Shown here: positions 27,507 to 38,506 of the stretch, piece by piece
How positions within the stretch are numbered: position 1 is the first letter of the stretch
Layout of the letters: each line of letters begins with the position of its first letter
Source: Pseudomonadota bacterium
Lineage (GTDB): Bacteria; Pseudomonadota; Gammaproteobacteria; Burkholderiales; Burkholderiaceae_C
Assembly (NCBI GenBank): GCA_039798945.1
Contig: JBDKFA010000352.1
Span: 6,262-70,261 of the forward strand
Direction of reading: 5' to 3'
Length of the DNA stretch: 64,000 nt
Notes under the pieces: model-generated
Told to the model about the DNA's origin: nothing
Databases searched by the model: none
The model's input: the letters and a program-made list of their open reading frames with translations, nothing else
Made by a program: the position numbers and the translations under genes

Positions 27507-28241
27507 ATGTCCATCACCCTCGCCACCGCGCTGGTCGCGGCCACCGTCACCCTGCCGTCCTGCTCGTGGGACCGGCCGGGCGCCGACCCGTACATGGGGG
27601 ACATCGAGGCTGCGGTGGACCGCTACCGCGACATTCCGCCCGACGTGCGCGCACGCCTGAAGGCCAAGATGCGCCAGCGCGCCTACGACGACATCGCGGC
27701 CATCACGCGCGACAAGATCGAGGGCAAGCGCAGCTACTCGAACCTGCGCGACATGCACTTCGGCAACGGGCGCGTCTGCCGCGAGGTGGGGCGCAGCAAG
27801 TGGAAGCCTGAGGCGGTGGAGCGCGGACTCGTCTACTGCGAGGGCGAGCACTGCCTGATCGTCCCCACGGTGTGCCGCAACGTCAGCCGCGTCACGCTGG
27901 AGCAGGCCCACAACCCGAAGACGGCCGCAGGCCCCGCGGACGAGCCGCTCGACCTGCCCTCCAGCGGCGGCCCCAACATGCTCCGCGGCCAGCGCTTCCT
28001 CGACGAGACCGACCCGCTGCCCGCGCGCATCCGCTCGCTGGAGCCGCCCCCGGGCGAACTGACTTTCGACCCGCCCGCCCTGGGGCAGGAGCCACCCCCC
28101 GAGCTGCCGCGCGAGCCGCTGCCCGATCCGAGCCCGCCGATCCCCCCTCCGCCCATCCCCGAGCCCTCCACCTGGGCGCTGATGGCCCTGGGCCTGGCTA
28201 TGGTGGCCAGGCAGGCGCGGCGCGCACGGGCCTCCTCCTAG
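27507..28241 (+). CDS. MHFG-family PEP-CTERM protein
   Basis: N-terminal hydrophobic leader, CSWDRPG, MHFG motif, Cys-rich core (CEGEHC...VCRNVSR), Pro-rich linker, C-terminal IPEPSTWALMALGLAMVARQARR sorting signal. Confidence 0.9.
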   Translation: MSITLATALVAATVTLPSCSWDRPGADPYMGDIEAAVDRYRDIPPDVRARLKAKMRQRAYDDIAAITRDKIEGKRSYSNLRDMHFGNGRVCREVGRSKWKPEAVERGLVYCEGEHCLIVPTVCRNVSRVTLEQAHNPKTAAGPADEPLDLPSSGGPNMLRGQRFLDETDPLPARIRSLEPPPGELTFDPPALGQEPPPELPREPLPDPSPPIPPPPIPEPSTWALMALGLAMVARQARRARASS

Positions 28242-28936
28242 AAGCCTTCGGCCCGCACGCGGCTGGCCAGGTCGGGCCAGCGCGCCATCTTGCTGGCGTC
28301 GCCCAGGCGCCGGTCCTGGCCGGCCTGTGCGCGCCAGGTGCCCTCGGCATTGAAGACGTAGGTGGGCGGCGACAGGTCCGTGCGAAGCGATGCCGGGTGC
28401 ATCTCGCGCACCACGTTGTCCAGGATCAGCGGCTCGGCGCTGGGTTGGGGGTAGTAGGCGAGCACCATGTGCGCCACGCTCGTCTCGCCGGGCCGCTCCG
28501 GCGCGGCAGGCGGCACCGAGATCGCCACATAGGCCATGCGCAGCTTGGCATGCGGCACGCCGGCCGCCACGAGGGTGAAGTACTTGGCGATCACGAAGTC
28601 CTCGCAGTCGCCGCGCCCCTTGTCGAGCGTCTGCAGCGGGCTCGCCCAGTACTCCTGCTGATTCCACACGGCCATGTCGCTGTCGTAGCGGATGCGCGCG
28701 TTGTAGAACTCGTTGACTTCGCGCGCCTTCACCACCTCGTCGGCTGCTGCCAGGCGCTGCACGAGCGCCAGCAAATCGCGCGCGCCGGCCTCGGCGCGAG
28801 GCCCGAGGCCGGCAGCGGCCACTCGCAGCTGCTCCGCGTCCAGCGCCAGGGCCGGGGCTGGGGCCAGCAGGAGCAGCGCCGCACAGCCGAGCGCGGCGGT
28901 GGCGGCGACAGCACCTTGGCGCAGTCCAGCGCCCAT
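28238..28936 (-). CDS. lapG: LapG-like transglutaminase-like cysteine protease (copy 1)
   Basis: Signal peptide; YWASP, GRGDCED (Cys), HMVLAYY (His), ILDN (Asp); in line with lapD. Confidence 0.9.
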   Translation of the reverse strand: MGAGLRQGAVAATAALGCAALLLLAPAPALALDAEQLRVAAAGLGPRAEAGARDLLALVQRLAAADEVVKAREVNEFYNARIRYDSDMAVWNQQEYWASPLQTLDKGRGDCEDFVIAKYFTLVAAGVPHAKLRMAYVAISVPPAAPERPGETSVAHMVLAYYPQPSAEPLILDNVVREMHPASLRTDLSPPTYVFNAEGTWRAQAGQDRRLGDASKMARWPDLASRVRAEGF

Positions 28937-28955
28937 GCCCGGCTCGACCGCGACC

Positions 28956-30875
28956 TCAGCTGCCCGGCCGCTTGATCGCCGGGCCGGTCGCTCCGTCGAA
29001 GCCGATGCGCCACAACGCCGGCAAGTCCTCGGCCTGCGAGATCCCCTCGGCGTACAGCGTCACACCGATGCTGCGCGCGGTGGCCACGACCTGGGCGGCG
29101 TAATCGGCCAGCTTCGTGTCCTGGTGGATGCCGCGCAGGAAGCGGCCATCGACCTTCAGGAAGTCGAGCCCCCTGCCCTTGGCGTCCAGCAGCGTCTGCA
29201 GCGACTCCTTCGCCCCGCCCAGCCCGAACCGCACGCCCATCGGCTTCCACAGTGCCGCGGCCGCCGGCCAGGCCTGCTCGGCGTGTACCGCCGATTCGGT
29301 GGCCTCCACCACCAGCTTGCGCGCGGCGCCCGCATGCTGGGCCAGCAGGTTGCTGACCGCCTGCACGAACTGCGCATCGGCCAGCGAGGCGGCGGACATG
29401 TACACGCAGCGTGCCACCCCGTCGCGCGGGATCGCCTGCAGCGCCATGCGCGTGGCCATCAGGTCGGCCTGCTGCACGAGCTGCGCGCGGATGGCCATCG
29501 GCAGCCAGTGCGCCGAACTGTAGAAGGGGCCGTCGGGCTCGAGCTGCAGGCGCAGCGGGCACTCCAGGTGCAGCACCCCGCCATCGGGCCCGATCACGGC
29601 GAACTCCGCGAGCCGGGCGCGCCCGAGCTGCAGCGCCTCGGTGACCCGGCGGCGCCACTCCTGCTCGCCCATCACCTCGCCCTCGCTGCCGGGGCGCACG
29701 GCCACCGCAAAGGGGCCCTCGCTCTCCGCCTGCGCCAGCGCCTGGTCGGCCTTGGACAGGGTCTGTCCCACGGCGCCCGTGGCCAGCCCTTCCAGCGCGC
29801 CGATGTGGAACTCGGCCTCGGGGTCGGCCTGCTGGAAAAGCGGCCGCACCGCCGCGGCCAGCTCCTCGGCCACCACCTTGCCGACACCGTTGACCGGGAC
29901 GTACAAGGCGAAGTCGGAGCCGTTCAGCCGGCCGCACAGGCTGCCTTCGACGCGGGCGGCGCATTCGTTGAGCTTCACGCCGACGTCGGCCAGCAGCCGG
30001 TCGGCGACGTTGCGTCCCACCCGCCGGTTGATCGCGTTGAGCGCCTGCACCCGCAGCAGCACCAGCGCCCCGCGGCGCGTGACCGTGCTGGCCGTGGAGC
30101 TTCCGCCCAGCGCGCGCTCGAGCTGCGCCAGGAAGTGCGCCCGGTTGTGCACCCCGGAGACGCCGTCGCGCTGCAACTGCTGGCGCATCGTGTCGAGCTG
30201 GCTCGCCTGGTTCTCGAACAGCGTCTTCACGCGTCGCACCATCGAGTTCATGCCAGTGGCCAGCGCCTTGAACTCGAGCGTGCGCGGCAACGCGATCTCG
30301 GTGAAGCGCGCCTCCTCCACGCCGCGCGCCTGCTCGACCATGCCGTCGAGCGTCTCGCGCCAGCCGCGTACGAACGTGAAGGCCACGGCGAGCGCGGCCG
30401 CCCCGATCACCAGCAGCGTGAAGACGAAGCGCAGCATCCCGTCCCACAACGCGTTGTAGGCCCACGCCCCATGGCTTTCCACCGACAGTTGCCCGATCTG
30501 GCGCCAGCCGTCGATGACGGTGGCCACGCCCGCCGGGGCCTGCAGCGGCAGTGCGCGGACGAACCACGCCGGCGCATTGCCCACCGTCTCCGGGCTCTCG
30601 CGCTCGATGATCACGGCGCCATCCACCCCTGCCAGGCGGATGCGGCGGTAGTGGCCCGCATCGAACTGCGCCTGCAGCACGAGTTCGATCATCTTCAGGT
30701 CGCCGCGCTGCGCGTTGGCCACCTGCGCGAGCAGCGCGGCCGCGTCGCCGTTGCGGGCCTGCCACTGCGACTGCATCGACTTCTGGAAGATCCAGGTGCC
30801 CACGGCCGCGCTGCCACCGAAGGCCAGCAGCACCACCATCGACAGCAGCAGCGCGATCTGGCGGATCATCGACAC
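28956..30875 (-). CDS. lapD: LapD-like c-di-GMP receptor (periplasmic domain, TM, HAMP, degenerate GGDEF and EAL)
   Basis: LapD/MoxY N-terminal domain with the GWRQ loop (30498-30509); GGDEF replaced by NGSDF; EAL replaced by ECPLR; DDFG motif lost. Confidence 0.9.
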   Translation of the reverse strand: MSMIRQIALLLSMVVLLAFGGSAAVGTWIFQKSMQSQWQARNGDAAALLAQVANAQRGDLKMIELVLQAQFDAGHYRRIRLAGVDGAVIIERESPETVGNAPAWFVRALPLQAPAGVATVIDGWRQIGQLSVESHGAWAYNALWDGMLRFVFTLLVIGAAALAVAFTFVRGWRETLDGMVEQARGVEEARFTEIALPRTLEFKALATGMNSMVRRVKTLFENQASQLDTMRQQLQRDGVSGVHNRAHFLAQLERALGGSSTASTVTRRGALVLLRVQALNAINRRVGRNVADRLLADVGVKLNECAARVEGSLCGRLNGSDFALYVPVNGVGKVVAEELAAAVRPLFQQADPEAEFHIGALEGLATGAVGQTLSKADQALAQAESEGPFAVAVRPGSEGEVMGEQEWRRRVTEALQLGRARLAEFAVIGPDGGVLHLECPLRLQLEPDGPFYSSAHWLPMAIRAQLVQQADLMATRMALQAIPRDGVARCVYMSAASLADAQFVQAVSNLLAQHAGAARKLVVEATESAVHAEQAWPAAAALWKPMGVRFGLGGAKESLQTLLDAKGRGLDFLKVDGRFLRGIHQDTKLADYAAQVVATARSIGVTLYAEGISQAEDLPALWRIGFDGATGPAIKRPGS

Positions 30876-30936
30876 GGCGCGGCCCCTTTGCGACACGGTT
30901 GAGGTGAGCACGGAGTCTACGCGTGAAGTCCGCGAT

Positions 30937-30968
30937 GGCTGCTGCGGGGGGAACGGCTGCTGCGGGGG
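30937..30968. repeat. 14-bp direct repeat x2 upstream of lapD
   Basis: ggctgctgcggggg at 30937-30950 and 30955-30968. Confidence 0.55.
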
Positions 30969-31011
30969 CGGCGTGGGCGGCGGGCGCTGGCGGCCCGCGC
31001 CGCAGGGACGC

Positions 31012-31770
31012 TCAGAACCCTTCGGCCTTGATCCGGTTCATCGCGTCGCGCCACTTGGAGATGCGCGCCATCGGGTCGCCCATGCTCTGCTGCCCCACCC
31101 CTTGCCACAGGCCCTCGGTGTTGAAGCTGAACACAGGCTTGAGGTCCGGGCGCTGCGAAGCGGGCCGGATCTCGTCGGTCAGGTTGTCCAGGATGACAGG
31201 CTCGGCAGTGGGCTGGGCATAGTACGCGAGCACCATATGCCCGACCGACTCGGCCGGTTGCGTCGCCGTGGCGGGCAGGTCGGCCTTCACGTAGATCAGG
31301 CGCATCTTGGACGCCGGCATGCCCCCGGCCAGCAGCGTGAAGTACTTGGCGATCGCGTAGTCCTCGCAGTCCCCGCGGCCCTGTCCAAAGGTCTCCAGCG
31401 GGCTTGCCCAATAGTCCAGTTGCTGCCACAGCCGCAGGTCCGAGGTGTATCGGATCTTGCGGTTGTAGAAGAGGTTCGTCTCTTCGTGCTGCACGGCTTC
31501 GTCGGCCCCCGCGAGCCGGCTCACGAGTTCCTGCATCTCCTGGACCATGCGCTCGGTCTCGCCGCCGCGCTCGCGCGCCGCCTGCAGCACCCGCCCGGCG
31601 CTGAAGGCCTGCGCGACCGAGCTCAGGGTCAGGCCAACGGCCAACACCGCGCACAGGCCCACGACCACCGGCGGGCGGCACAGCGCTGCCCGCCAGGCCC
31701 GGGCAGCCGCGCCCGCCCGGGACGGCGCGGCACTCGGATGCGAAGGCAGGTGCGGACGCAAGTGACTCAT
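31012..31770 (-). CDS. lapG: LapG-like transglutaminase-like cysteine protease (copy 2)
   Basis: DYWASPLE, GRGDCEDYAIAKY, HMVLAYY, ILDN; signal peptide ending AQA. Start uncertain. Confidence 0.9.
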   Translation of the reverse strand: MSHLRPHLPSHPSAAPSRAGAAARAWRAALCRPPVVVGLCAVLAVGLTLSSVAQAFSAGRVLQAARERGGETERMVQEMQELVSRLAGADEAVQHEETNLFYNRKIRYTSDLRLWQQLDYWASPLETFGQGRGDCEDYAIAKYFTLLAGGMPASKMRLIYVKADLPATATQPAESVGHMVLAYYAQPTAEPVILDNLTDEIRPASQRPDLKPVFSFNTEGLWQGVGQQSMGDPMARISKWRDAMNRIKAEGF

Positions 31771-32047
31771 GGGCGAATCTCGCGAGCGGTCGGGGTCAGG
31801 CAATGGACGAACGACAGGAACGGAACCCACTTCACACTATGCCGCGCCGGCCTCGGGACGAAGCCGGCCCTCGGCCCCCTCCAACCGGGGGGGAAGAGTC
31901 GCCGCCGCGTGACGTCCGTCACGACCCGGGCCCGGCTGTGCGCCTCGGCGCCCCCAGCCGGGGCCGCCTGCGATTGTGCACAGCCGGCCGCCTCCGCCGA
32001 AACCGGCGCGCGTACAAGCGGTGCGCGTGCACACGGATTCGCCCGCC

Positions 32048-33370
32048 CTAGCGCTCCCGCAGTGCCTGCGAGACGTTTTGCAGCGGCCGGAACAGGTACT
32101 CGAGCACGGTCTTGTGGCCGGTGCGGATCTCCACCAGCGCCGTCATGCCCGGCAGCGGCTCGAGCGTCATGCCTGCGCGCACGCGGTCGCCGTCGCGGAT
32201 GCGCACGAGGATGCGGTAGAAGCCCTCCTCGAGCTCGGGCAGGCTGCCCGGACGGCGGTTGCGCTCGTCCTTCAAGGTGTCCGGGCTCACCTGCTCGAGC
32301 ACGCCGTCCAGGCCCCCGTACTTGTTGAAGTCATAGGCGGTGAGCTTCACCGTGGCGGCCTGGCCGGGCCGCAGGAAGGCCACCTCGGTGGGCCGCACGT
32401 AGGCCTCCACCAGCATCTCGTCTTGCACGGGTACGATCTCCAGGATGTTCTGCCCGGGCTGGATGACGCCACCGACGGTGGTGATCTGCACGTTCTTGAC
32501 GATGCCCTTCATCGGCGCGCGGATCACCGTGCGGCGCAGGCTGTCCTCGCGCGCGAGCGCGTTCTCGCGCGTCTGCGCGAGCTCGCTTTCCACACGCGTG
32601 AGCTCGTTGCTGGCATCCGTCAGGTAGCGGTTGCGCCGCTCGACGATCTGCCCTTGCAGGTCTGCCTGCTGGCGCCCGAGGTCGGCCAGCTGGCGCTTGA
32701 GCTCGGCCTCCTGGCGCTGCAGCCGCAGCAGCTCCACTTCCGAGATCACACCCTGGCGCACGAGGGGCTGCGTCATCTCGAGTTCGCGCCGGGTGGCGAG
32801 CATCGAATCCTGCACCGCCCGCACCGAGCCTTCGGTGGCGGCCAGCGAGGCCCGGATGGCGCGCACCTGCTCCTCCAGCGCCTGGCGCCGCGCCTCGTAG
32901 GCCTGGCGTTCGCGCGCCAGCACCGCCGGCACGGCACGCACCTCCGGCGGAAACTCGAGCGCCGCACCACGAGCCTCGGCGCGCAGCCGCGCCGCGAGCG
33001 CGGCCAGGGCCAGCGCCTTCTCGCGTGCCTCGCGGTAGACCGGGCCGGCACGGGCATCGTCGATGCGAAGCAGCACCTGCCCCGCGCTCACGGCATCGCC
33101 CTCGCGCACGAGCAGTTCGCGCAGGATGCCCGAGTCGAGGCTTTGCACCACCTGCTCGCGGCTGGCGGGGATGACGCGGCCCTGGGCGCGCGTGATCTCG
33201 TCGAGCTCGAAGGTGGCCGCCCAGCCCAGGGCCACGGCCAGCGTCAGCGCGGTGGCCCACAGCAGCCAGCGGCTCGTGCACCGCTCCTCCTCCTCGGGGC
33301 TGTCCAGCACGCGTGCCGGGGCCGATGCGGGCGCACGGGCAGCTTCGGCAGCCGGACGGGCGGGCTTCAC
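32048..33370 (-). CDS. lapC: HlyD-family type I secretion membrane fusion protein (LapC-like)
   Basis: N-terminal TM, GRVIPASREQVVQSLDSGI, coiled coil, IRAPMKGIV, PGMTA, GHKTVLEYLFRP. GTG overlaps the lapB stop. Confidence 0.9.
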   Translation of the reverse strand: MKPARPAAEAARAPASAPARVLDSPEEEERCTSRWLLWATALTLAVALGWAATFELDEITRAQGRVIPASREQVVQSLDSGILRELLVREGDAVSAGQVLLRIDDARAGPVYREAREKALALAALAARLRAEARGAALEFPPEVRAVPAVLARERQAYEARRQALEEQVRAIRASLAATEGSVRAVQDSMLATRRELEMTQPLVRQGVISEVELLRLQRQEAELKRQLADLGRQQADLQGQIVERRNRYLTDASNELTRVESELAQTRENALAREDSLRRTVIRAPMKGIVKNVQITTVGGVIQPGQNILEIVPVQDEMLVEAYVRPTEVAFLRPGQAATVKLTAYDFNKYGGLDGVLEQVSPDTLKDERNRRPGSLPELEEGFYRILVRIRDGDRVRAGMTLEPLPGMTALVEIRTGHKTVLEYLFRPLQNVSQALRER

Positions 33371-35622
33371 GCGAAGCCCCCTGCGGGGGGCGCACCGGTG
33401 GCCGAGGCCCGGCCGGCGGCGGCCGGCACCGCGATGCCGCGGCTCAGCCGCTCGATCATCTGCGCCTTCGGGCCGCTGGCCAGGCATTGCCCGGCCTCGA
33501 TGACCGCGATCGCGTCCACGAGCTCGAGCAGCTGCGGGCGGTGCGTGGCCAAGAGCAGCGTGCGCCCGGGCAGCCACTGCTGGAGCGCAGCGATCACGCG
33601 CGCCTCGGTGTGCTGGTCCATGTGCGCGGTGGGCTCGTCCATGAATACGATCTGCGGGTCGCGCAGCATCATGCGCGCCAGGCTCAGCAGCTGGCGCTGC
33701 CCGCCCGACAGGCCGCCGCCCGCTTCGGTGAGCGGCCGGTCCAGCCCGCGCGGGTGCTCGGCCACCACCGGGTACAGCTCGATCGCCTTGAGCACTTCGA
33801 GGATTCGGCTGTCCGGCATGTGGCGGTCCGACAGCACCAGGTTCTCGCGCAGCGTACCCATGAACAGCATCGGCTCCTGGCCCACCCAGCCGATGCGCGC
33901 ACGCTGCGAGGCCGGGTCGATCTGCGACAACGCGATGCCGTCCACGCGCACCTGCCCGGCCAGCGGCTCGTGCAGGCCGGCGGCCACGCGCAGCAGCGTG
34001 GACTTGCCCGAACCCACGCGCCCGAGAAGCGCCATGCGCTCGCCGGGGGCAAGCTCCAGGCTCAGCCGGCGCAGCACCGGCAGGCCCTGCTCGCCGGGGT
34101 AGGCGAACTCCAGCTCGTCCAGGCGCAGCGCACTGCCCCGGGACGACCGGTCCGCCGCGAGATACCGGCGCGCGTCCTCGCGGTCGCGCGGCCGCTTCAT
34201 CAGACCGTCCAGCGTCTGCAGCGCGGTGGCCGCCTGCTGGTAGCGCGCGGCCAGCCCCATCACGCTGCCCAGCGGCGCGATGGCCCGTCCGGCGAGGATC
34301 ACCGCAGCGATCAGCCCCCCGAGCGTGAGCGCGTTGGCGTGGATCAGGTAGACGCCGGCCACCACCATCGCGATCGTCACGAGCTGCTGCAGGGTCTGCG
34401 TGAGCCCGAGGATCAGGTTGGTCAGCGCGCGGATGCGCTTGTAGGAGTCGGCCCCGAACTCGTTGGCGCGCTCCCAGCGCTGCTGCAGGTAGCCTTCGGC
34501 GTTGTGGGCCTTGAGCGCCTCCAGGTTCAGCAGCGCCTCCACCAGCACGCTCTGGCGGTCGCCGGCCTCCTTCATGTTCTCGCGCATCGCGCGCATCAGC
34601 GCGGGCTGCGCGAGCAGCGCAACCGCGAGCACGAGCGGCACGGCCAGCGTCGGGATCCAGCCGATGGGCCCGCCGACGATGAAGATGAGGGCGATGAACA
34701 GGGCGATGAACGGCAGCTCGGTGAGCAGCACGAAGGAGGCTGACGAGAAGAAGTCGCGCAGCGCCTCGAAGTCGCGCATCGAACTCGCGAAGATGCCGAT
34801 CGACTGCGGCCGGTGCTCCAGGCGGATGGACAGGATCTCGCGCAACAGCGTGGCGTTGATGGCCAGGTCGGCTCGCTTGCCGCCCAGGTCCACGAGGCGT
34901 GCCTTCAGCCAGCGCATCGCGAACTCCAGCAACGCGGCGGCCGCCGCGCCGATGGCCAGCGTCCACAGCGAGGTGTAGGCCTGCGTGGGTACCACGCGGT
35001 CGTAGACGTTCATCGTGAAGAACACACCGGCCAGCGTCAGCACGTTGGCGATGACGGTGGCCAGCATCGATTCGACGTAGAAGTGCCGGAAGCGCCACAA
35101 CGTGCTCCAGAACCAGCCGAAGGCGCGGCCGCGAAACGGCACGAGGGTCTGCCCGGACGGCTGCGCAAGCGCCTTCACGACGAGCACCTCGCCGGTGCTG
35201 GCGGCGTCGAGCTCGTGCAGCGGCAGGCGCAGCTCCTCGTGGCCGCCGTGGGGCGCGAGCACGCTCGCCTGCCCCTGGGCAATGGCACGCAGCACGTAGG
35301 CGCGTCCGTCCGTGCATGGCACGATCACCGGCAGCACGTAGCTCGGCAGGCGGCTGGGCAGGCCCTTGGCCCAGGAGGCCGCCAGTCCGTGCCGGCGTGC
35401 CAGGTCCGGCAGTGCGGCCAGGGGCACGCGGCCCTCGGCATCGACCGCGAACCCGGAGGTGAGCGCAGCCGCCTGCAGCGGCCGCTCGAGGATCTCGCCG
35501 GCCAGCATCAGGCAGGCCAGCACCGGGTCGTCCGGAAATGGCGGAAGCGGCGGCTCGGCCGGTGCAGCAGCAGTACCAGCAGCAGTACCAGCAGCGGTGG
35601 CGGCAGCGGTGGCAGCGGACAT
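33367..35622 (-). CDS. lapB: Type I secretion ABC permease/ATPase with C39-like domain (LapB-like)
   Basis: C39-like N-terminus, MNVYDRVVP, GRVGSGKST, LSGGQRQ, MDEPT. Confidence 0.92.
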   Translation of the reverse strand: MSAATAAATAAGTAAGTAAAPAEPPLPPFPDDPVLACLMLAGEILERPLQAAALTSGFAVDAEGRVPLAALPDLARRHGLAASWAKGLPSRLPSYVLPVIVPCTDGRAYVLRAIAQGQASVLAPHGGHEELRLPLHELDAASTGEVLVVKALAQPSGQTLVPFRGRAFGWFWSTLWRFRHFYVESMLATVIANVLTLAGVFFTMNVYDRVVPTQAYTSLWTLAIGAAAAALLEFAMRWLKARLVDLGGKRADLAINATLLREILSIRLEHRPQSIGIFASSMRDFEALRDFFSSASFVLLTELPFIALFIALIFIVGGPIGWIPTLAVPLVLAVALLAQPALMRAMRENMKEAGDRQSVLVEALLNLEALKAHNAEGYLQQRWERANEFGADSYKRIRALTNLILGLTQTLQQLVTIAMVVAGVYLIHANALTLGGLIAAVILAGRAIAPLGSVMGLAARYQQAATALQTLDGLMKRPRDREDARRYLAADRSSRGSALRLDELEFAYPGEQGLPVLRRLSLELAPGERMALLGRVGSGKSTLLRVAAGLHEPLAGQVRVDGIALSQIDPASQRARIGWVGQEPMLFMGTLRENLVLSDRHMPDSRILEVLKAIELYPVVAEHPRGLDRPLTEAGGGLSGGQRQLLSLARMMLRDPQIVFMDEPTAHMDQHTEARVIAALQQWLPGRTLLLATHRPQLLELVDAIAVIEAGQCLASGPKAQMIERLSRGIAVPAAAGRASATGAPPAGGFA
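35567..35614 (-). repeat. 12-bp tandem repeat x4 encoding ATAA-ATAA-GTAA-GTAA at the LapB N-terminus
   Basis: gcagcagtacca x2 then gcagcggtggc(g/a) x2 on the plus strand. Confidence 0.75.
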
Positions 35623-35716
35623 GGCCTTCAGTATCGCCGCAGCGGCCCAGGGGGCGGCGGCGGGCGTGCAGCGGCGGTCCGGCAAGCAGCAGCCAGCGGC
35701 CGCGGCCGCGCGGGGC

Positions 35717-36958
35717 TCAGCGCGCGTAGACCCGGCCGAGCTCGGCCAGCGCCGCAGACAGCCGGAACCGCGCCAGGCGCCGGTCGGCGCGCGCACCGGC
35801 CGCAGCCACCGCGTAGCCGTGTGCCTCGGCCTGGATGTTCAGCAGGTCCAGCAGCGAGCGGCGGGCCAGCCGGAACTGCAGCCGGTAGCCCTCGACCACC
35901 TTCTGTGCCGCCTGATCCTGACCGTCACTGAGCGATTCGCGCCGCTGCGTGGACTGCCACTCCGACCAGGCGGCGGTGATGCGTTCGCGCACCGCCAGGG
36001 CCTGCTCGTCGGCTGCCGCCCGCGCAGCGCGTGCCTGGGCGTCGGCCGAGGCCACGGCCGCCGAGCCCGCACCGGCGTTGAAGACGGGCATGCTCACACT
36101 CAGTTCCGTCTTCAGGCCAGGTCGCAGCGTGTAGGGGTTGAGCGGGTGGCTGAGCTGCAAGTCGACCTTCGGTCGTGTCTGCGCCCGTGTCTGCACGACG
36201 CCCGCATCGGCGGCCTCCACCTGCGCCAGGCTCTGCGCGATCAGGGGGTGCCGGGCACCGGCCGAGGCCAGCGCCTGCGCCAGCGAGGCAGGCAGCTCCC
36301 CGGGCTCCTCCTCCAGGCCGGCCGGCTGCGCCGGCAACGCCTGGGGCCAGAACCGCGCCAGCCGCGCCGCCGCCTGGGCCAGTTCGCCTTCACGCTGCTC
36401 GACGGCAAGGGCGGCCGCGTTCACGCGCACCTGCGCCTGGCTGAGGTCCACCAGGCGACCCGGGTCCACATCGACGATGCGCCTGACGTCCTCGCCGATG
36501 CGCTGCAGCGCCTGCAGGTTCTCGCGCGCCAGACCCACGATCTCGAACTGACGCGCCCAGACGATGTAGGCCTCGGCGGCCTGCAGCGCGACTTCGTCGA
36601 GCGTCGAGCCGGTCCTGCCCTGGGCGGCACGCTGCAGCGCATCGGCGCGCGCCACCCCGGCTTCGATGCCGCCTCCGGCATACAGGGTGTAGCTCGCCTG
36701 CGGCGTGGCCACGAGCCGGCGCGGGGCCCCCTCCTGCTCGACGGCCGTGGCGCCCACCCCTACGGTGGGCCAGCGCGCCGCCTTGGCCCGGTCGAGGTCG
36801 GCCGCGCTGCCGGCGGCATTGGCCCGGGCCGCGAGCACCGCCGGGTACTGGACGAGAGCCTCGCGCACCACCTCGCCCAGGGTCTGGGCGCGGGCCGCGG
36901 CAGCCGCCGCCAGCGCCAGCACACCGGCCGCGCCGGCGACCGCACCGGCGCGGCGCAT
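35717..36958 (-). CDS. lapE: TolC-family outer membrane protein (LapE-like)
   Basis: Signal peptide; ALVQYPAV, two TolC repeats, QFRLARRSLLDLLN. Start uncertain. Confidence 0.88.
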   Translation of the reverse strand: MRRAGAVAGAAGVLALAAAAAARAQTLGEVVREALVQYPAVLAARANAAGSAADLDRAKAARWPTVGVGATAVEQEGAPRRLVATPQASYTLYAGGGIEAGVARADALQRAAQGRTGSTLDEVALQAAEAYIVWARQFEIVGLARENLQALQRIGEDVRRIVDVDPGRLVDLSQAQVRVNAAALAVEQREGELAQAAARLARFWPQALPAQPAGLEEEPGELPASLAQALASAGARHPLIAQSLAQVEAADAGVVQTRAQTRPKVDLQLSHPLNPYTLRPGLKTELSVSMPVFNAGAGSAAVASADAQARAARAAADEQALAVRERITAAWSEWQSTQRRESLSDGQDQAAQKVVEGYRLQFRLARRSLLDLLNIQAEAHGYAVAAAGARADRRLARFRLSAALAELGRVYAR

Positions 36959-37173
36959 GCACCGGCGAGCCGGGCGCGGGGGCGGGAAGGGACACAGCCA
37001 CATGGCCGGCATGCTAACGGGCGGCCAGCCCGACGACCCGCGCCTGCGGACGGGACACGCCACCGGCCGGGCCGTGCACGCTGGGGGCAACCCGCAAGCC
37101 ATCGCGCCGCACCCGCGCTATCGTGCGGGTGCGGCACGCAGCTTCGCGCGCCGGTACAGCCGGAGACGGTCCT

Positions 37174-37965
37174 ATGTCCTTGTCTGCTCTTCCTGGGCGC
37201 CGCGCCTGTGCGGCCTTTCTGGCGGTCGCCTGTGCGCTGCCGTCCGCACCGGCACGCGCCGACCAGACGGTCGAGCTGCGATCCGGTGGCGGCTACCAGA
37301 GTCTTGCCCTGGCCGCCGACGTCACCGAAGTCGAGCTGCTCGAGCAGCTGCAAGGCGCCTGCCGCTTCAACCGCAGCTGGGGCTACGACCTCACGAACCG
37401 CGAGCTGTGGGTCAACGGCGGCTGCGGCGGCCGCTTCAAGCTCGTGCAAGCGGCGGCCGAGGACAAGGGCAATTCCAATGCGGCCGCTGCCGCAGTGGCG
37501 GTGGCAGCGATCGCCGGCATCGCCATCCTCGCCAAGGCCAACCGCGACCGTCCGGACCACAGCCCGCCGCCGGAGCCCCCCTACACGCGCGGGCAGCCCA
37601 TCCGCAGCCAGCGCGGCCTGTGCCTGGACGTGGCCGACGGCCGCATGCGTCCCGGCGCACCGGTGCAGCTCTACAGCTGCCACGGGCGCGAGAACCAGCG
37701 CTTCACCTGGGGGCGAGGCGGGGAGATCGTCACGCCCAACCAGCTCTGCCTGGACATCCAGAACGCCAACACCGCAGACGGCGCGCGGCTGATCGTGTGG
37801 AACTGCTCGGGCGCGCGCAACCAGCGATGGCACGCGCGCGGCGGCACGATCGTGAGCCAGCTCAACGGCAAGTGCGTGGATGTCTTCGAAGGCCAGTTCC
37901 GCAACGGCCAGCCGGTGGTCGCCTGGAGCTGCAACGGCGGGCCCAACCAGCGCTGGTGGTGGTGA
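37174..37965 (+). CDS. Exported protein: DUF3011-like domain + ricin-type beta-trefoil lectin
   Basis: Signal peptide; CRFNRSWGYD...LWVNGGCGGRF; hydrophobic spacer; three CLD...C...NQR(F/W)xW ricin-B repeats. Confidence 0.82.
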   Translation: MSLSALPGRRACAAFLAVACALPSAPARADQTVELRSGGGYQSLALAADVTEVELLEQLQGACRFNRSWGYDLTNRELWVNGGCGGRFKLVQAAAEDKGNSNAAAAAVAVAAIAGIAILAKANRDRPDHSPPPEPPYTRGQPIRSQRGLCLDVADGRMRPGAPVQLYSCHGRENQRFTWGRGGEIVTPNQLCLDIQNANTADGARLIVWNCSGARNQRWHARGGTIVSQLNGKCVDVFEGQFRNGQPVVAWSCNGGPNQRWWW

Positions 37966-37969
37966 GGAG

Positions 37970-38506
37970 ATGAGGATGCACAAGCAAGCGTTCACCGTGA
38001 CCCGCCTGACGCTGTGGCACTCGGTTGGGCACCTGGCGGCCTCGTTGGCCTTGGCGGCATCACCGCTGGCGGTGTGCGCCGCCCCGGCCGCGGCTCCCGC
38101 GGCCTCGGCGGGCGCCAAAGGCGGGACAAACGCCCCGCGCATGAGCGGCGCCGAGCAGGCTTGTCGCGCTGCCGATCACGACCACGACGGGTTCATCTCG
38201 CTGGCCGAATACCAGCGCGACGTCGCGCGCAGCTGGGCTGCACTCGGCCCCGACGCCACTGGCTACGTCAAGCTGGACGACCTGGCCGCCATCCCGGGGC
38301 TGCGCCGCAGCGTGCTGGAGCGGCTGCGCCAGGCCGACGCCGACGGCGACGGGCGGCTGTCGTTCAAGGAGGTGGTCGCCGCGCGCATGGCGCAGTTCGA
38401 CGCCGCCGACCTCGACCGCGACGACCGGCTGTCGATGAAGGAGTGCATCGACCACGAGCGCAAGCTCGGCGCCGAGCAGCGGGCGCAGCGCCGCGGGAAG
38501 TCCTGA
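37970..38506 (+). CDS. Exported EF-hand calcium-binding protein
   Basis: DHDHDGFISLAEY, DADGDGRLSFKE, DLDRDDRLSMKE and one degenerate hand; hydrophobic N-terminus; GGAG RBS. Confidence 0.85.
   Translation: MRMHKQAFTVTRLTLWHSVGHLAASLALAASPLAVCAAPAAAPAASAGAKGGTNAPRMSGAEQACRAADHDHDGFISLAEYQRDVARSWAALGPDATGYVKLDDLAAIPGLRRSVLERLRQADADGDGRLSFKEVVAARMAQFDAADLDRDDRLSMKECIDHERKLGAEQRAQRRGKS

Follow-up and report, generated by a model that had tools for sequence, protein, structure and literature searches.

The stretch of 64,000 nucleotides analysed here (called the window throughout; contig JBDKFA010000352.1, positions 6,262 to 70,261, assembly GCA_039798945.1, Burkholderiaceae_C) contains a gene for a PEP-CTERM protein of the MHFG family, which lies next to a module of LapG-like proteases and a LapD-like receptor for cyclic di-GMP (c-di-GMP). 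Of the routes by which c-di-GMP acts on the cell surface, LapD/LapG is the one understood best, and PEP-CTERM/exosortase proteins are required for floc formation in wastewater bacteria of the window's group. A first-pass annotation of the locus had proposed that LapG could cut the PEP-CTERM protein at a TAAG tetrapeptide. A linker motif that is kept where the Lap module exists and missing where it is absent suggests that MHFG-family proteins may be a third kind of LapG target beside LapA and CdrA, arisen by convergent evolution; on comparative sequence evidence we put the probability of this reading at about 0.5. The locus comprises the following features.

27507-28241, plus strand: MHFG-family PEP-CTERM gene, 244 amino acids (NF038119; PF07589)
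27561-27890, plus strand: N-terminal domain, from CSWDRPG (residues 19-25) via MHFG (83-86) to CRNVSR (123-128), defined by invariant alignment columns
27921-27932, plus strand: TAAG, residues 139-142, which fits the published LapG core
28056-28085, plus strand: degenerate second motif copy ELTFDPPALG, residues 184-193, recognised by alignment to relatives
28152-28238, plus strand: PEP-CTERM sorting signal with IPEPSTW, hydrophobic helix and Arg-rich tail (PF07589, TIGR02595)
28238-28936, minus strand: lapG-1, an additional BTLCP paralogue transcribed towards the MHFG gene (PF06035, NF045674)
28956-30911, minus strand: lapD-like c-di-GMP receptor (PF16448, 101 bits, with PF00990 and PF00563; NF045673)
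31012-31830, minus strand: lapG-2, start codon uncertain (PF06035, NF045674)
32048-37102, minus strand: type I secretion operon with TolC-like gene (35717-37102), LssB-type ABC gene (33367-35796) and HlyD adaptor gene (32048 to ~33400)

The annotation had named the gene correctly. The whole protein scored 243.5 bits with NF038119 (cut-off 100), and residues 216-239 matched PF07589 (26.3 bits, cut-off 20.7) as well as TIGR02595. TAAG occupies residues 139-142 (27921-27932), as had been reported. The domain in front of it is real, although its description as Cys-rich has to be corrected to five cysteines at residues 19, 91, 111, 116 and 123. An AlphaFold2 model calculated from an alignment of 30 sequences predicted a confident fold at about residues 30-133, with pLDDT values of 84-96 over most of the conserved N-terminal MHFG domain, a disordered region (135-179) starting at the TAAG, around which pLDDT dropped to ~40, and a C-terminal helix (220-243). 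The candidate site falls within the long, Pro-rich and disordered linker that joins this fold to the anchor, on the predicted periplasmic side. Comparison of the MHFG domain fold with the PDB gave no match at E<=0.001. Residues 1-18, a putative export leader, are hydrophobic (model helix 3-13) and lack a basic n-region; in some relatives the leader is longer and ends in AQA. The window's genome also encodes an exosortase (G000:C7:15585-16352; PF09721, 221 bits).

The published LapG-site consensus is [T/A/P]AA[G/V], which the window protein matches with its TAAG in an exposed stretch. Taken alone, these four residues say little. The annotation's caveat that it arises by chance was confirmed by counts in the window's genome, where 3.1% of high-GC3 frames of 200-300 amino acids contain TAAG and 11% contain [TPA]AAG. 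A bare TAAG is not meaningful by itself because 3% of similar-sized frames carry it. Likewise, in the Ala-rich linkers of 121 diverse MHFG-family representatives [TPA]AA[GV] was barely enriched over shuffled linkers (54 observed, 39.5 expected).

Alignments of 120 homologues and 80 genomic loci revealed a longer motif, hydrophobic-x-hydrophobic-[DE]-[PA]-[PT]-[AGS]-A-G, which is common to many MHFG relatives in a linker that is otherwise unalignable. Scored with the regular expression [LIVMF].{0,3}[DE].{0,2}[PT][AGS]AG (hereafter R2), it was found 52 times in the 121 representatives, compared with 5.5 expected from shuffles. The related pattern L-x-[FMIL]-[DE]-x-[TPA]-[AGS]-[AG]-G was present in 70 of the 80 genomic homologues, mostly 25-50 residues past the domain. 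The conservation that the annotation had asked about across the family is thus a property of the longer motif and not of bare [TPA]AA[GV]. Near relatives of the window protein show the form PL[DE][FI]E-TAAGP, while most others read [PE]L-x-[FMIL]-[DE]-[PA]-[PT]-[AGS]-A-G, for example PLMFDPPAAG, PLEFEAPAAG or LEMEPTGAG. Five homologues (P0028, P0041, P0046, P0093 and P0120) contain PL[ED]F[ED]TAAGP two or three times in near-perfect form. Judged from these alignments, the longer motif is real and belongs to a large subfamily, not to every MHFG member. None of the three other PEP-CTERM proteins of the window's genome was found to have a linker motif of the MHFG type, and a motif search elsewhere in that genome matched only cytoplasmic ABC ATPase motifs (LLLDEPAAG), which were discarded. 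The genomes also encode a second family, open frames of ~705-730 amino acids with an MHFG-like N-terminal domain (NF038119, 105-155 bits), at G306:C1:5689094-5689546, G139:C3:589753-590169 and G059:C1:1153925-1154323 and in G151, G163 and G556.

The distribution of the motif was compared with that of LapG and LapD. PF06035, the BTLCP profile (cut-off 27 bits), matched in 50 of 50 genomes, namely the window's genome and 49 reached via MHFG loci. Among 301 evenly sampled genomes of the window's bacterial family the MHFG domain occurred in 42, and LapG was found in 35 of these 42 versus 87 of the 259 MHFG-negative genomes. After extension of the sample to 401 genomes, LapG was present in 49 of 57 MHFG genomes. 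Seven MHFG-positive genomes (G062, G117, G169, G293, G324, G345 and G584) are devoid of both LapG and LapD. In an eighth apparent LapG-negative genome, G118, lapD is cut by the end of a 4.5-kb contig, and its lapG is therefore simply unassembled.

R2 matched in 46 of 50 Lap-positive genomes and in 0 of 6 that are Lap-negative (Fisher p = 6.5e-6 without correction for phylogeny), with shuffled linkers matching in 3%. The seventh Lap-negative copy is frameshifted and an apparent pseudogene (locus L085; G293:C19:725819-726575). The four misses among the Lap-positives are two one-residue variants (PLVFAPPSAG and ELAFAPPGAG), the window itself, and G063, in which BTLCP is present, the motif absent and LapD undetected. 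Linkers of the Lap-negative proteins retain relics such as EVEVPPAALPG and DPLAVVPPGAVP. The correlation with lap genes that the annotation had envisaged was therefore recovered for the presence of the motif and not for gene linkage, which is specific to one clade. All five Lap-negative genomes tested contain an exosortase, which indicates that the motif is not needed for sorting.

At 10 of 10 loci inspected, the lap genes of MHFG genomes form a stand-alone lapG-lapD pair with the BTLCP gene first and no type I secretion system (T1SS) within 10 kb. In nine of these ten genomes (loci L113-L122) a divergent gene for an HDOD-domain protein (PF08668, 125 bits) lies beside the pair. As a separate observation, G338, a congener of the window's organism with a 99.99% complete genome, is missing all three of MHFG domain, LapG and LapD.

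Classical LapG substrates were searched for with two retention-module profiles, the curated NF033682 and a lineage-specific profile, A2, built from divergent adhesins of these genomes. Across 151 genomes of the order, NF033682 recovered adhesins in 16; in 46 MHFG genomes it had no match above cut-off. Divergent retention-module adhesins below this cut-off exist in a few MHFG genomes; with A2 they were detected in only 7 of 62 genomes and in none of the other 55. Neither the window's genome nor its five nearest relatives gave an A2 match. Published criteria for LapA-like proteins are a length of >1000 amino acids, RTX repeats and [T/A/P]AA[G/V], and the same survey counted 2,720 organisms with LapD/LapG and no identifiable LapA-like protein, for which its authors expected convergent substrates like CdrA (10.1101/2020.05.11.089839). 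Most lapG-lapD pairs of the MHFG genomes are orphans in this published sense.

The sites of bona fide adhesins provide a second comparison. In the order's canonical adhesins the site reads GQDPFAELEAPAAGL, GQDPLQELEATAAGL or GADPSQVADATAAGG, and some MHFG members read PLEFEAPAAG, which may be set beside a canonical ELEAPAAG. A weight matrix derived from nine canonical LapG sites failed to pick out the MHFG motif, and the claim that similarity extends beyond the [PT]-A-A-G core was dropped. More telling are three aligned retention-module adhesins of the window's bacterial family, whose homologous positions read TAAG, SAAG and PGAG; the one with PGAG is encoded ~4 kb from a LapG match on the same contig. 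As far as these sequences go, the variation among adhesin sites covers the same spectrum as the MHFG motif. The PGAG adhesin itself would escape both the curated NF033682 model and the published di-alanine rule. The divergent retention-module adhesins (L204, G149:C14:33990-34328; L093; L203) start with MPTLAKT..G.V..LWG....

From the computed domain architecture, the linker motif and the way this motif varies together with the Lap module, we infer a mechanism of cleavage, c-di-GMP gating and domain release. The MHFG protein would be exported through its N-terminal leader and tethered to the inner membrane by the PEP-CTERM helix, where it would be handled by the exosortase with its linker in the periplasm. 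At high c-di-GMP, LapD would hold LapG at the inner membrane and the MHFG protein would stay joined to its anchor. At low c-di-GMP, free LapG would cut the linker at [PT]-[AGS]-A-G and so part the Cys-containing domain of ~105 residues from the sorting signal. LapG cleavage of the MHFG family is plausible on these comparisons and undescribed: a literature search for work linking LapG with PEP-CTERM proteins or exosortase found none, in agreement with the annotation's remark that no LapG substrate of the PEP-CTERM class had been described, and we know of no PEP-CTERM protein for which c-di-GMP-gated proteolysis has been reported.

Several observations weigh against this mechanism. The motif was found in just 43% of the 121 diverse representatives, and its commonest cores, PGAG (31 of 55 motif matches) together with PSAG and TGAG, lie outside the published [T/A/P]AA[G/V]. 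The nine-site weight matrix matched 14 of 138 MHFG linkers at p<0.05 and was not selective. In an MHFG-domain tree only ~4 changes account for the Lap-negative state, too few independent contrasts, so that the association, though strong, is not secured against shared phylogeny; a sign test on independent contrasts was dropped for want of pairs. Three motif-less loci (L055, L068 and L071) stand outside the LapG scoring. An LssB-type transporter is encoded in 50 of 54 genomes positive for both MHFG and LapG. An argument that these genomes have no T1SS at all was accordingly rejected, and an unrecognised T1SS substrate may exist in them.

These points feed the strongest alternative, namely that the MHFG gene is an incidental neighbour. 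The lapG-lapD-lapG block would then serve an adhesin exported by the adjoining LssB-type T1SS, either unassembled or of an unrecognised type; the MHFG gene would simply be the neighbour of pyrF and its TAAG a chance occurrence. The linker motif would have some other role, for example in docking a different periplasmic or matrix partner, and the link between motif and Lap would reflect shared ancestry. The direct contact of lapG-2 with a T1SS operon of the LapB/LssB type, an assembly split into 370 contigs, the convergent orientation of MHFG gene and lapG-1, the restriction of their adjacency to the window's clade, the purB-pyrF-MHFG arrangement without lap genes in L026 and L056, the chance frequency of TAAG and its loss from the closest relatives, the few independent Lap losses and the abundance of LssB transporters all fit this explanation. 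On the other side, neither the window's genome nor those of five close relatives yielded a retention-module N-terminus to the two profiles or to tblastn, and the motif is lost in every Lap-negative lineage while being kept in 46 of 50 Lap-positive genomes. Its [PTS]-[AG]-A-G endings are shared with homologous LapG sites of local adhesins, and the tandem copies point to a functional short linear motif. We regard the incidental-neighbour explanation as possible but doubtful.

Alternatively, the MHFG linker might act as a pseudo-substrate that binds LapG without releasing a cargo, a tethered competitor tuning the amount of LapG free for other targets. It would predict the same co-variation of motif and Lap module, and it would suit the many G-A instead of A-A cores, the position of the site on an inner-membrane-anchored protein near the place where LapD holds LapG, and the coexistence of LssB transporters in most of these genomes. 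Such a role has no precedent, however, and tandem copies in a disordered context are equally expected of real cleavage sites. Evident targets to be tuned are also missing among the giant T1SS proteins inspected. Those encoded beside the LssB genes of G059 and G306 start with MLGxxxxRLLTLF...PDPLAISDA, run straight into repeats and show neither a retention module nor a di-alanine site at the captured N-terminus; the corresponding frame of G163 runs off the fetched region, which does not cover its N-terminus. We consider the pseudo-substrate role improbable. The giant T1SS-adjacent proteins as a group (L214-L219, from G059, G306 and G163, three genomes that are closed or nearly so) are built from repeats of ~20 residues of the type T.QI.AL.T.Q. 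Finally, a second recognition or modification site within the PEP-CTERM/exosortase pathway, unrelated to LapG, would agree with a motif placed in the linker ahead of the sorting signal by which the family is defined, but is very improbable given the exosortase-bearing Lap-negative genomes (5 of 5 tested) whose MHFG proteins are motif-less and the three other PEP-CTERM proteins of the window's genome without it.

The family-level case for LapG cleavage is weakest for the window's particular gene. Near homologues show L[DE][IF]E-TAAGP aligned to its TAAG, yet in the window protein the part upstream reads LEQAHNPK in place of the hydrophobic/acidic pattern of the family, and the protein fails R2. 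The second copy, ELTFDPPALG, has A-L where relatives have A-A or G-A (ELNFDAPAAG, ELSFDPPAAG or PLxFDPPAAG). Among the lap-linked relatives, the corresponding sites read TAAR and PELG in P0002, SASV in P0003, PKQG and PAIG in L001 and TAVG in L004; L003 and L006 retain TAAG. The annotation's general idea of a PEP-CTERM protein as LapG substrate thus gains comparative support from a motif that tracks LapD/LapG, whereas its specific site, degenerate and not kept in the closest relatives, does not. A reasonable reading is that in the window's clade the Lap module is another one, devoted to the T1SS, and that the MHFG site may be under relaxed selection. Cleavage of the window's own protein at TAAG is a tentative proposal, towards which we lean slightly negative.

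The neighbouring module is as had been annotated, two BTLCP proteins and a receptor of LapD architecture on the minus strand. The stop codons of the MHFG gene (TAG, 28239-28241) and of lapG-1 (reverse-strand TAG, 28238-28240) do overlap in the palindrome CTAG at 28238-28241, but the orientation called head-to-head is in fact convergent, tail to tail, and the two genes therefore cannot be co-transcribed. Both LapG paralogues passed PF06035 (50.2 bits for lapG-1 and 48.2 for lapG-2) and fell below the equivalog cut-off of NF045674 (188 and 195 versus 320 bits). Alignment to the LapG proteins of P. fluorescens (4U65) and L. pneumophila (4FGO) showed that the catalytic Cys/His/Asp context is kept in both (GDCEDF/GDCEDY, HMVL, ILDN). 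The two intact paralogues, ~48-51% identical to each other, flank one lapD (28238-31830), whose product displays the LapD_MoxY_N, GGDEF and EAL architecture and did not reach the NF045673 equivalog level (307.7 versus 1020 bits). Of the two, lapG-2 stands upstream of lapD, where lapG is usually found; L153, L001 and L003 also have lapG-1, which L004 and L006 lack. Compared with the stand-alone LapG regions by tblastn, lapG-2 gave the higher bit score at 10 of 10 loci and the higher percent identity at only 8 of 10, with differences of 1-10 points. Elsewhere in the window's genome, a 737-aa frame contains a second weak LapD_MoxY_N-like match (G000:C52:15634-15966; 24.5 bits, just below cut-off).

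The T1SS operon, of the LssB/LapB type, directly adjoins lapG-2. It scored 754.9 bits with TIGR03375 (cut-off 693), 348 with TIGR01843 and 155 with TIGR01844 (below the cut-off of 225.15), and contains a PF02321 OEP match. No adhesin gene is located within the window, NF033682, A2 and tblastn detected no retention-module N-terminus in the 370-contig assembly, and a regular-expression scan of the genome returned no RTX-like frame. Just past the TolC gene, at 37123-37965, lies a gene for a ricin-type lectin with a signal peptide (NF035930, 305 bits), which is found in the same place in L153. An overlapping frame (37880-38506) encodes an EF-hand protein with a weak lanmodulin-like match (44.5 bits, below the cut-off of 135).

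Origin and position of this module likewise count against a role for it in cleaving the window's protein. The local LapD is 37-39% identical to the stand-alone LapDs of other MHFG genomes, which share 46-72% among themselves except for two same-genus pairs at 89% and 98%. By this measure the window's module is T1SS-linked and of another lineage than the stand-alone lapG-lapD pairs found together with the motif in other genomes, and the adjacency may be incidental because the neighbouring module belongs to that T1SS-linked lineage. lap genes were found within 10 kb of MHFG at 4 of 80 loci (L001, L003, L004 and L006) and at L153, the locus of the 88% identical P0002; all five are close relatives with purB-pyrF-MHFG synteny. 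The arrangement is thus not unique to one strain, an outcome the annotation had considered. L026 and L056 have purB-pyrF-MHFG without any lap gene, and in most of the family the MHFG gene lies between a divergent receiver-only response regulator and a convergent uvrA, neighbours that proved uninformative as clues to function. Gene linkage, on which the annotation had built, was therefore rejected as support: the adjacency is confined to the window's small clade, is lineage-specific and by itself is no evidence of function.

With respect to known systems, the locus resembles LapD/LapG/LapA of Pseudomonas fluorescens Pf0-1 in its Cys-His-Asp BTLCP protease, its LapD_MoxY_N-GGDEF-EAL receptor and the adjoining LssB/LapB-type T1SS, and the candidate site fits the [T/A/P]AA[G/V] core and sits in a disordered segment. 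In contrast to LapA-like proteins, which have >1000 amino acids with C-terminal RTX repeats and a T1SS signal, the MHFG protein has 244 amino acids. It is apparently exported by an N-terminal leader and has no RTX repeats and no retention module. NF033682 found no N-terminal retention module in the window's genome, and the MHFG domain is unrelated to it. Furthermore, its site precedes a C-terminal PEP-CTERM anchor of the inner membrane, and two LapG paralogues flank one LapD.

A precedent for a convergent substrate outside the T1SS is CdrA/CdrB of Pseudomonas aeruginosa, a type Vb system in which LapG cuts a C-terminal TAAG. As in CdrA, the MHFG site is near a C-terminal retention element and cleavage would free the N-terminal functional part. 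CdrA, by contrast, is a fibrillar adhesin of 2,154 residues retained in its outer-membrane pore CdrB, whereas the small MHFG protein is anchored by a transmembrane PEP-CTERM segment and has no known outer-membrane partner. That other lineages have re-wired BTLCP/di-alanine control is illustrated by the Dvh system of Desulfovibrio vulgaris, which combines the BTLCP protease DvhG with an HD-GYP receptor, DvhD, and the substrate DvhA, and which also shows that such proteases are specific to their own substrates (PMC10990149). Unlike the MHFG proteins, DvhA remains a giant T1SS adhesin with a retention module. PEP-CTERM/exosortase (EpsH/XrtA) systems such as PepA of Aquincola tertiaricarbonis and the floc proteins of Zoogloea share the sorting signal with the window protein, and the window's genome has an exosortase gene. 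PepA is, however, an unrelated Asn-rich protein without MHFG domain or motif. The window's organism belongs to one bacterial group with floc-forming Aquincola/Rubrivivax relatives, in which PEP-CTERM proteins bind exopolysaccharide to cells (PMC9850573).

If LapG does not cut these proteins, the motif would be an unexplained conserved linear element that follows the Lap module. If it does, the accepted LapG site would be widened to [PT]-[AGS]-A-G, and 10-residue motifs in 250-aa proteins of culturable Roseateles, Mitsuaria and Aquincola strains would offer a short, easily testable substrate. Cleavage would also explain part of the LapD/LapG genomes without a LapA-like adhesin. The orphan lapG-lapD pairs of Burkholderiales of the Roseateles/Rubrivivax group would then use c-di-GMP to set the anchor attachment of an exosortase-sorted protein, and the Lap switch would be joined to the PEP-CTERM/exopolysaccharide machinery of floc formation.

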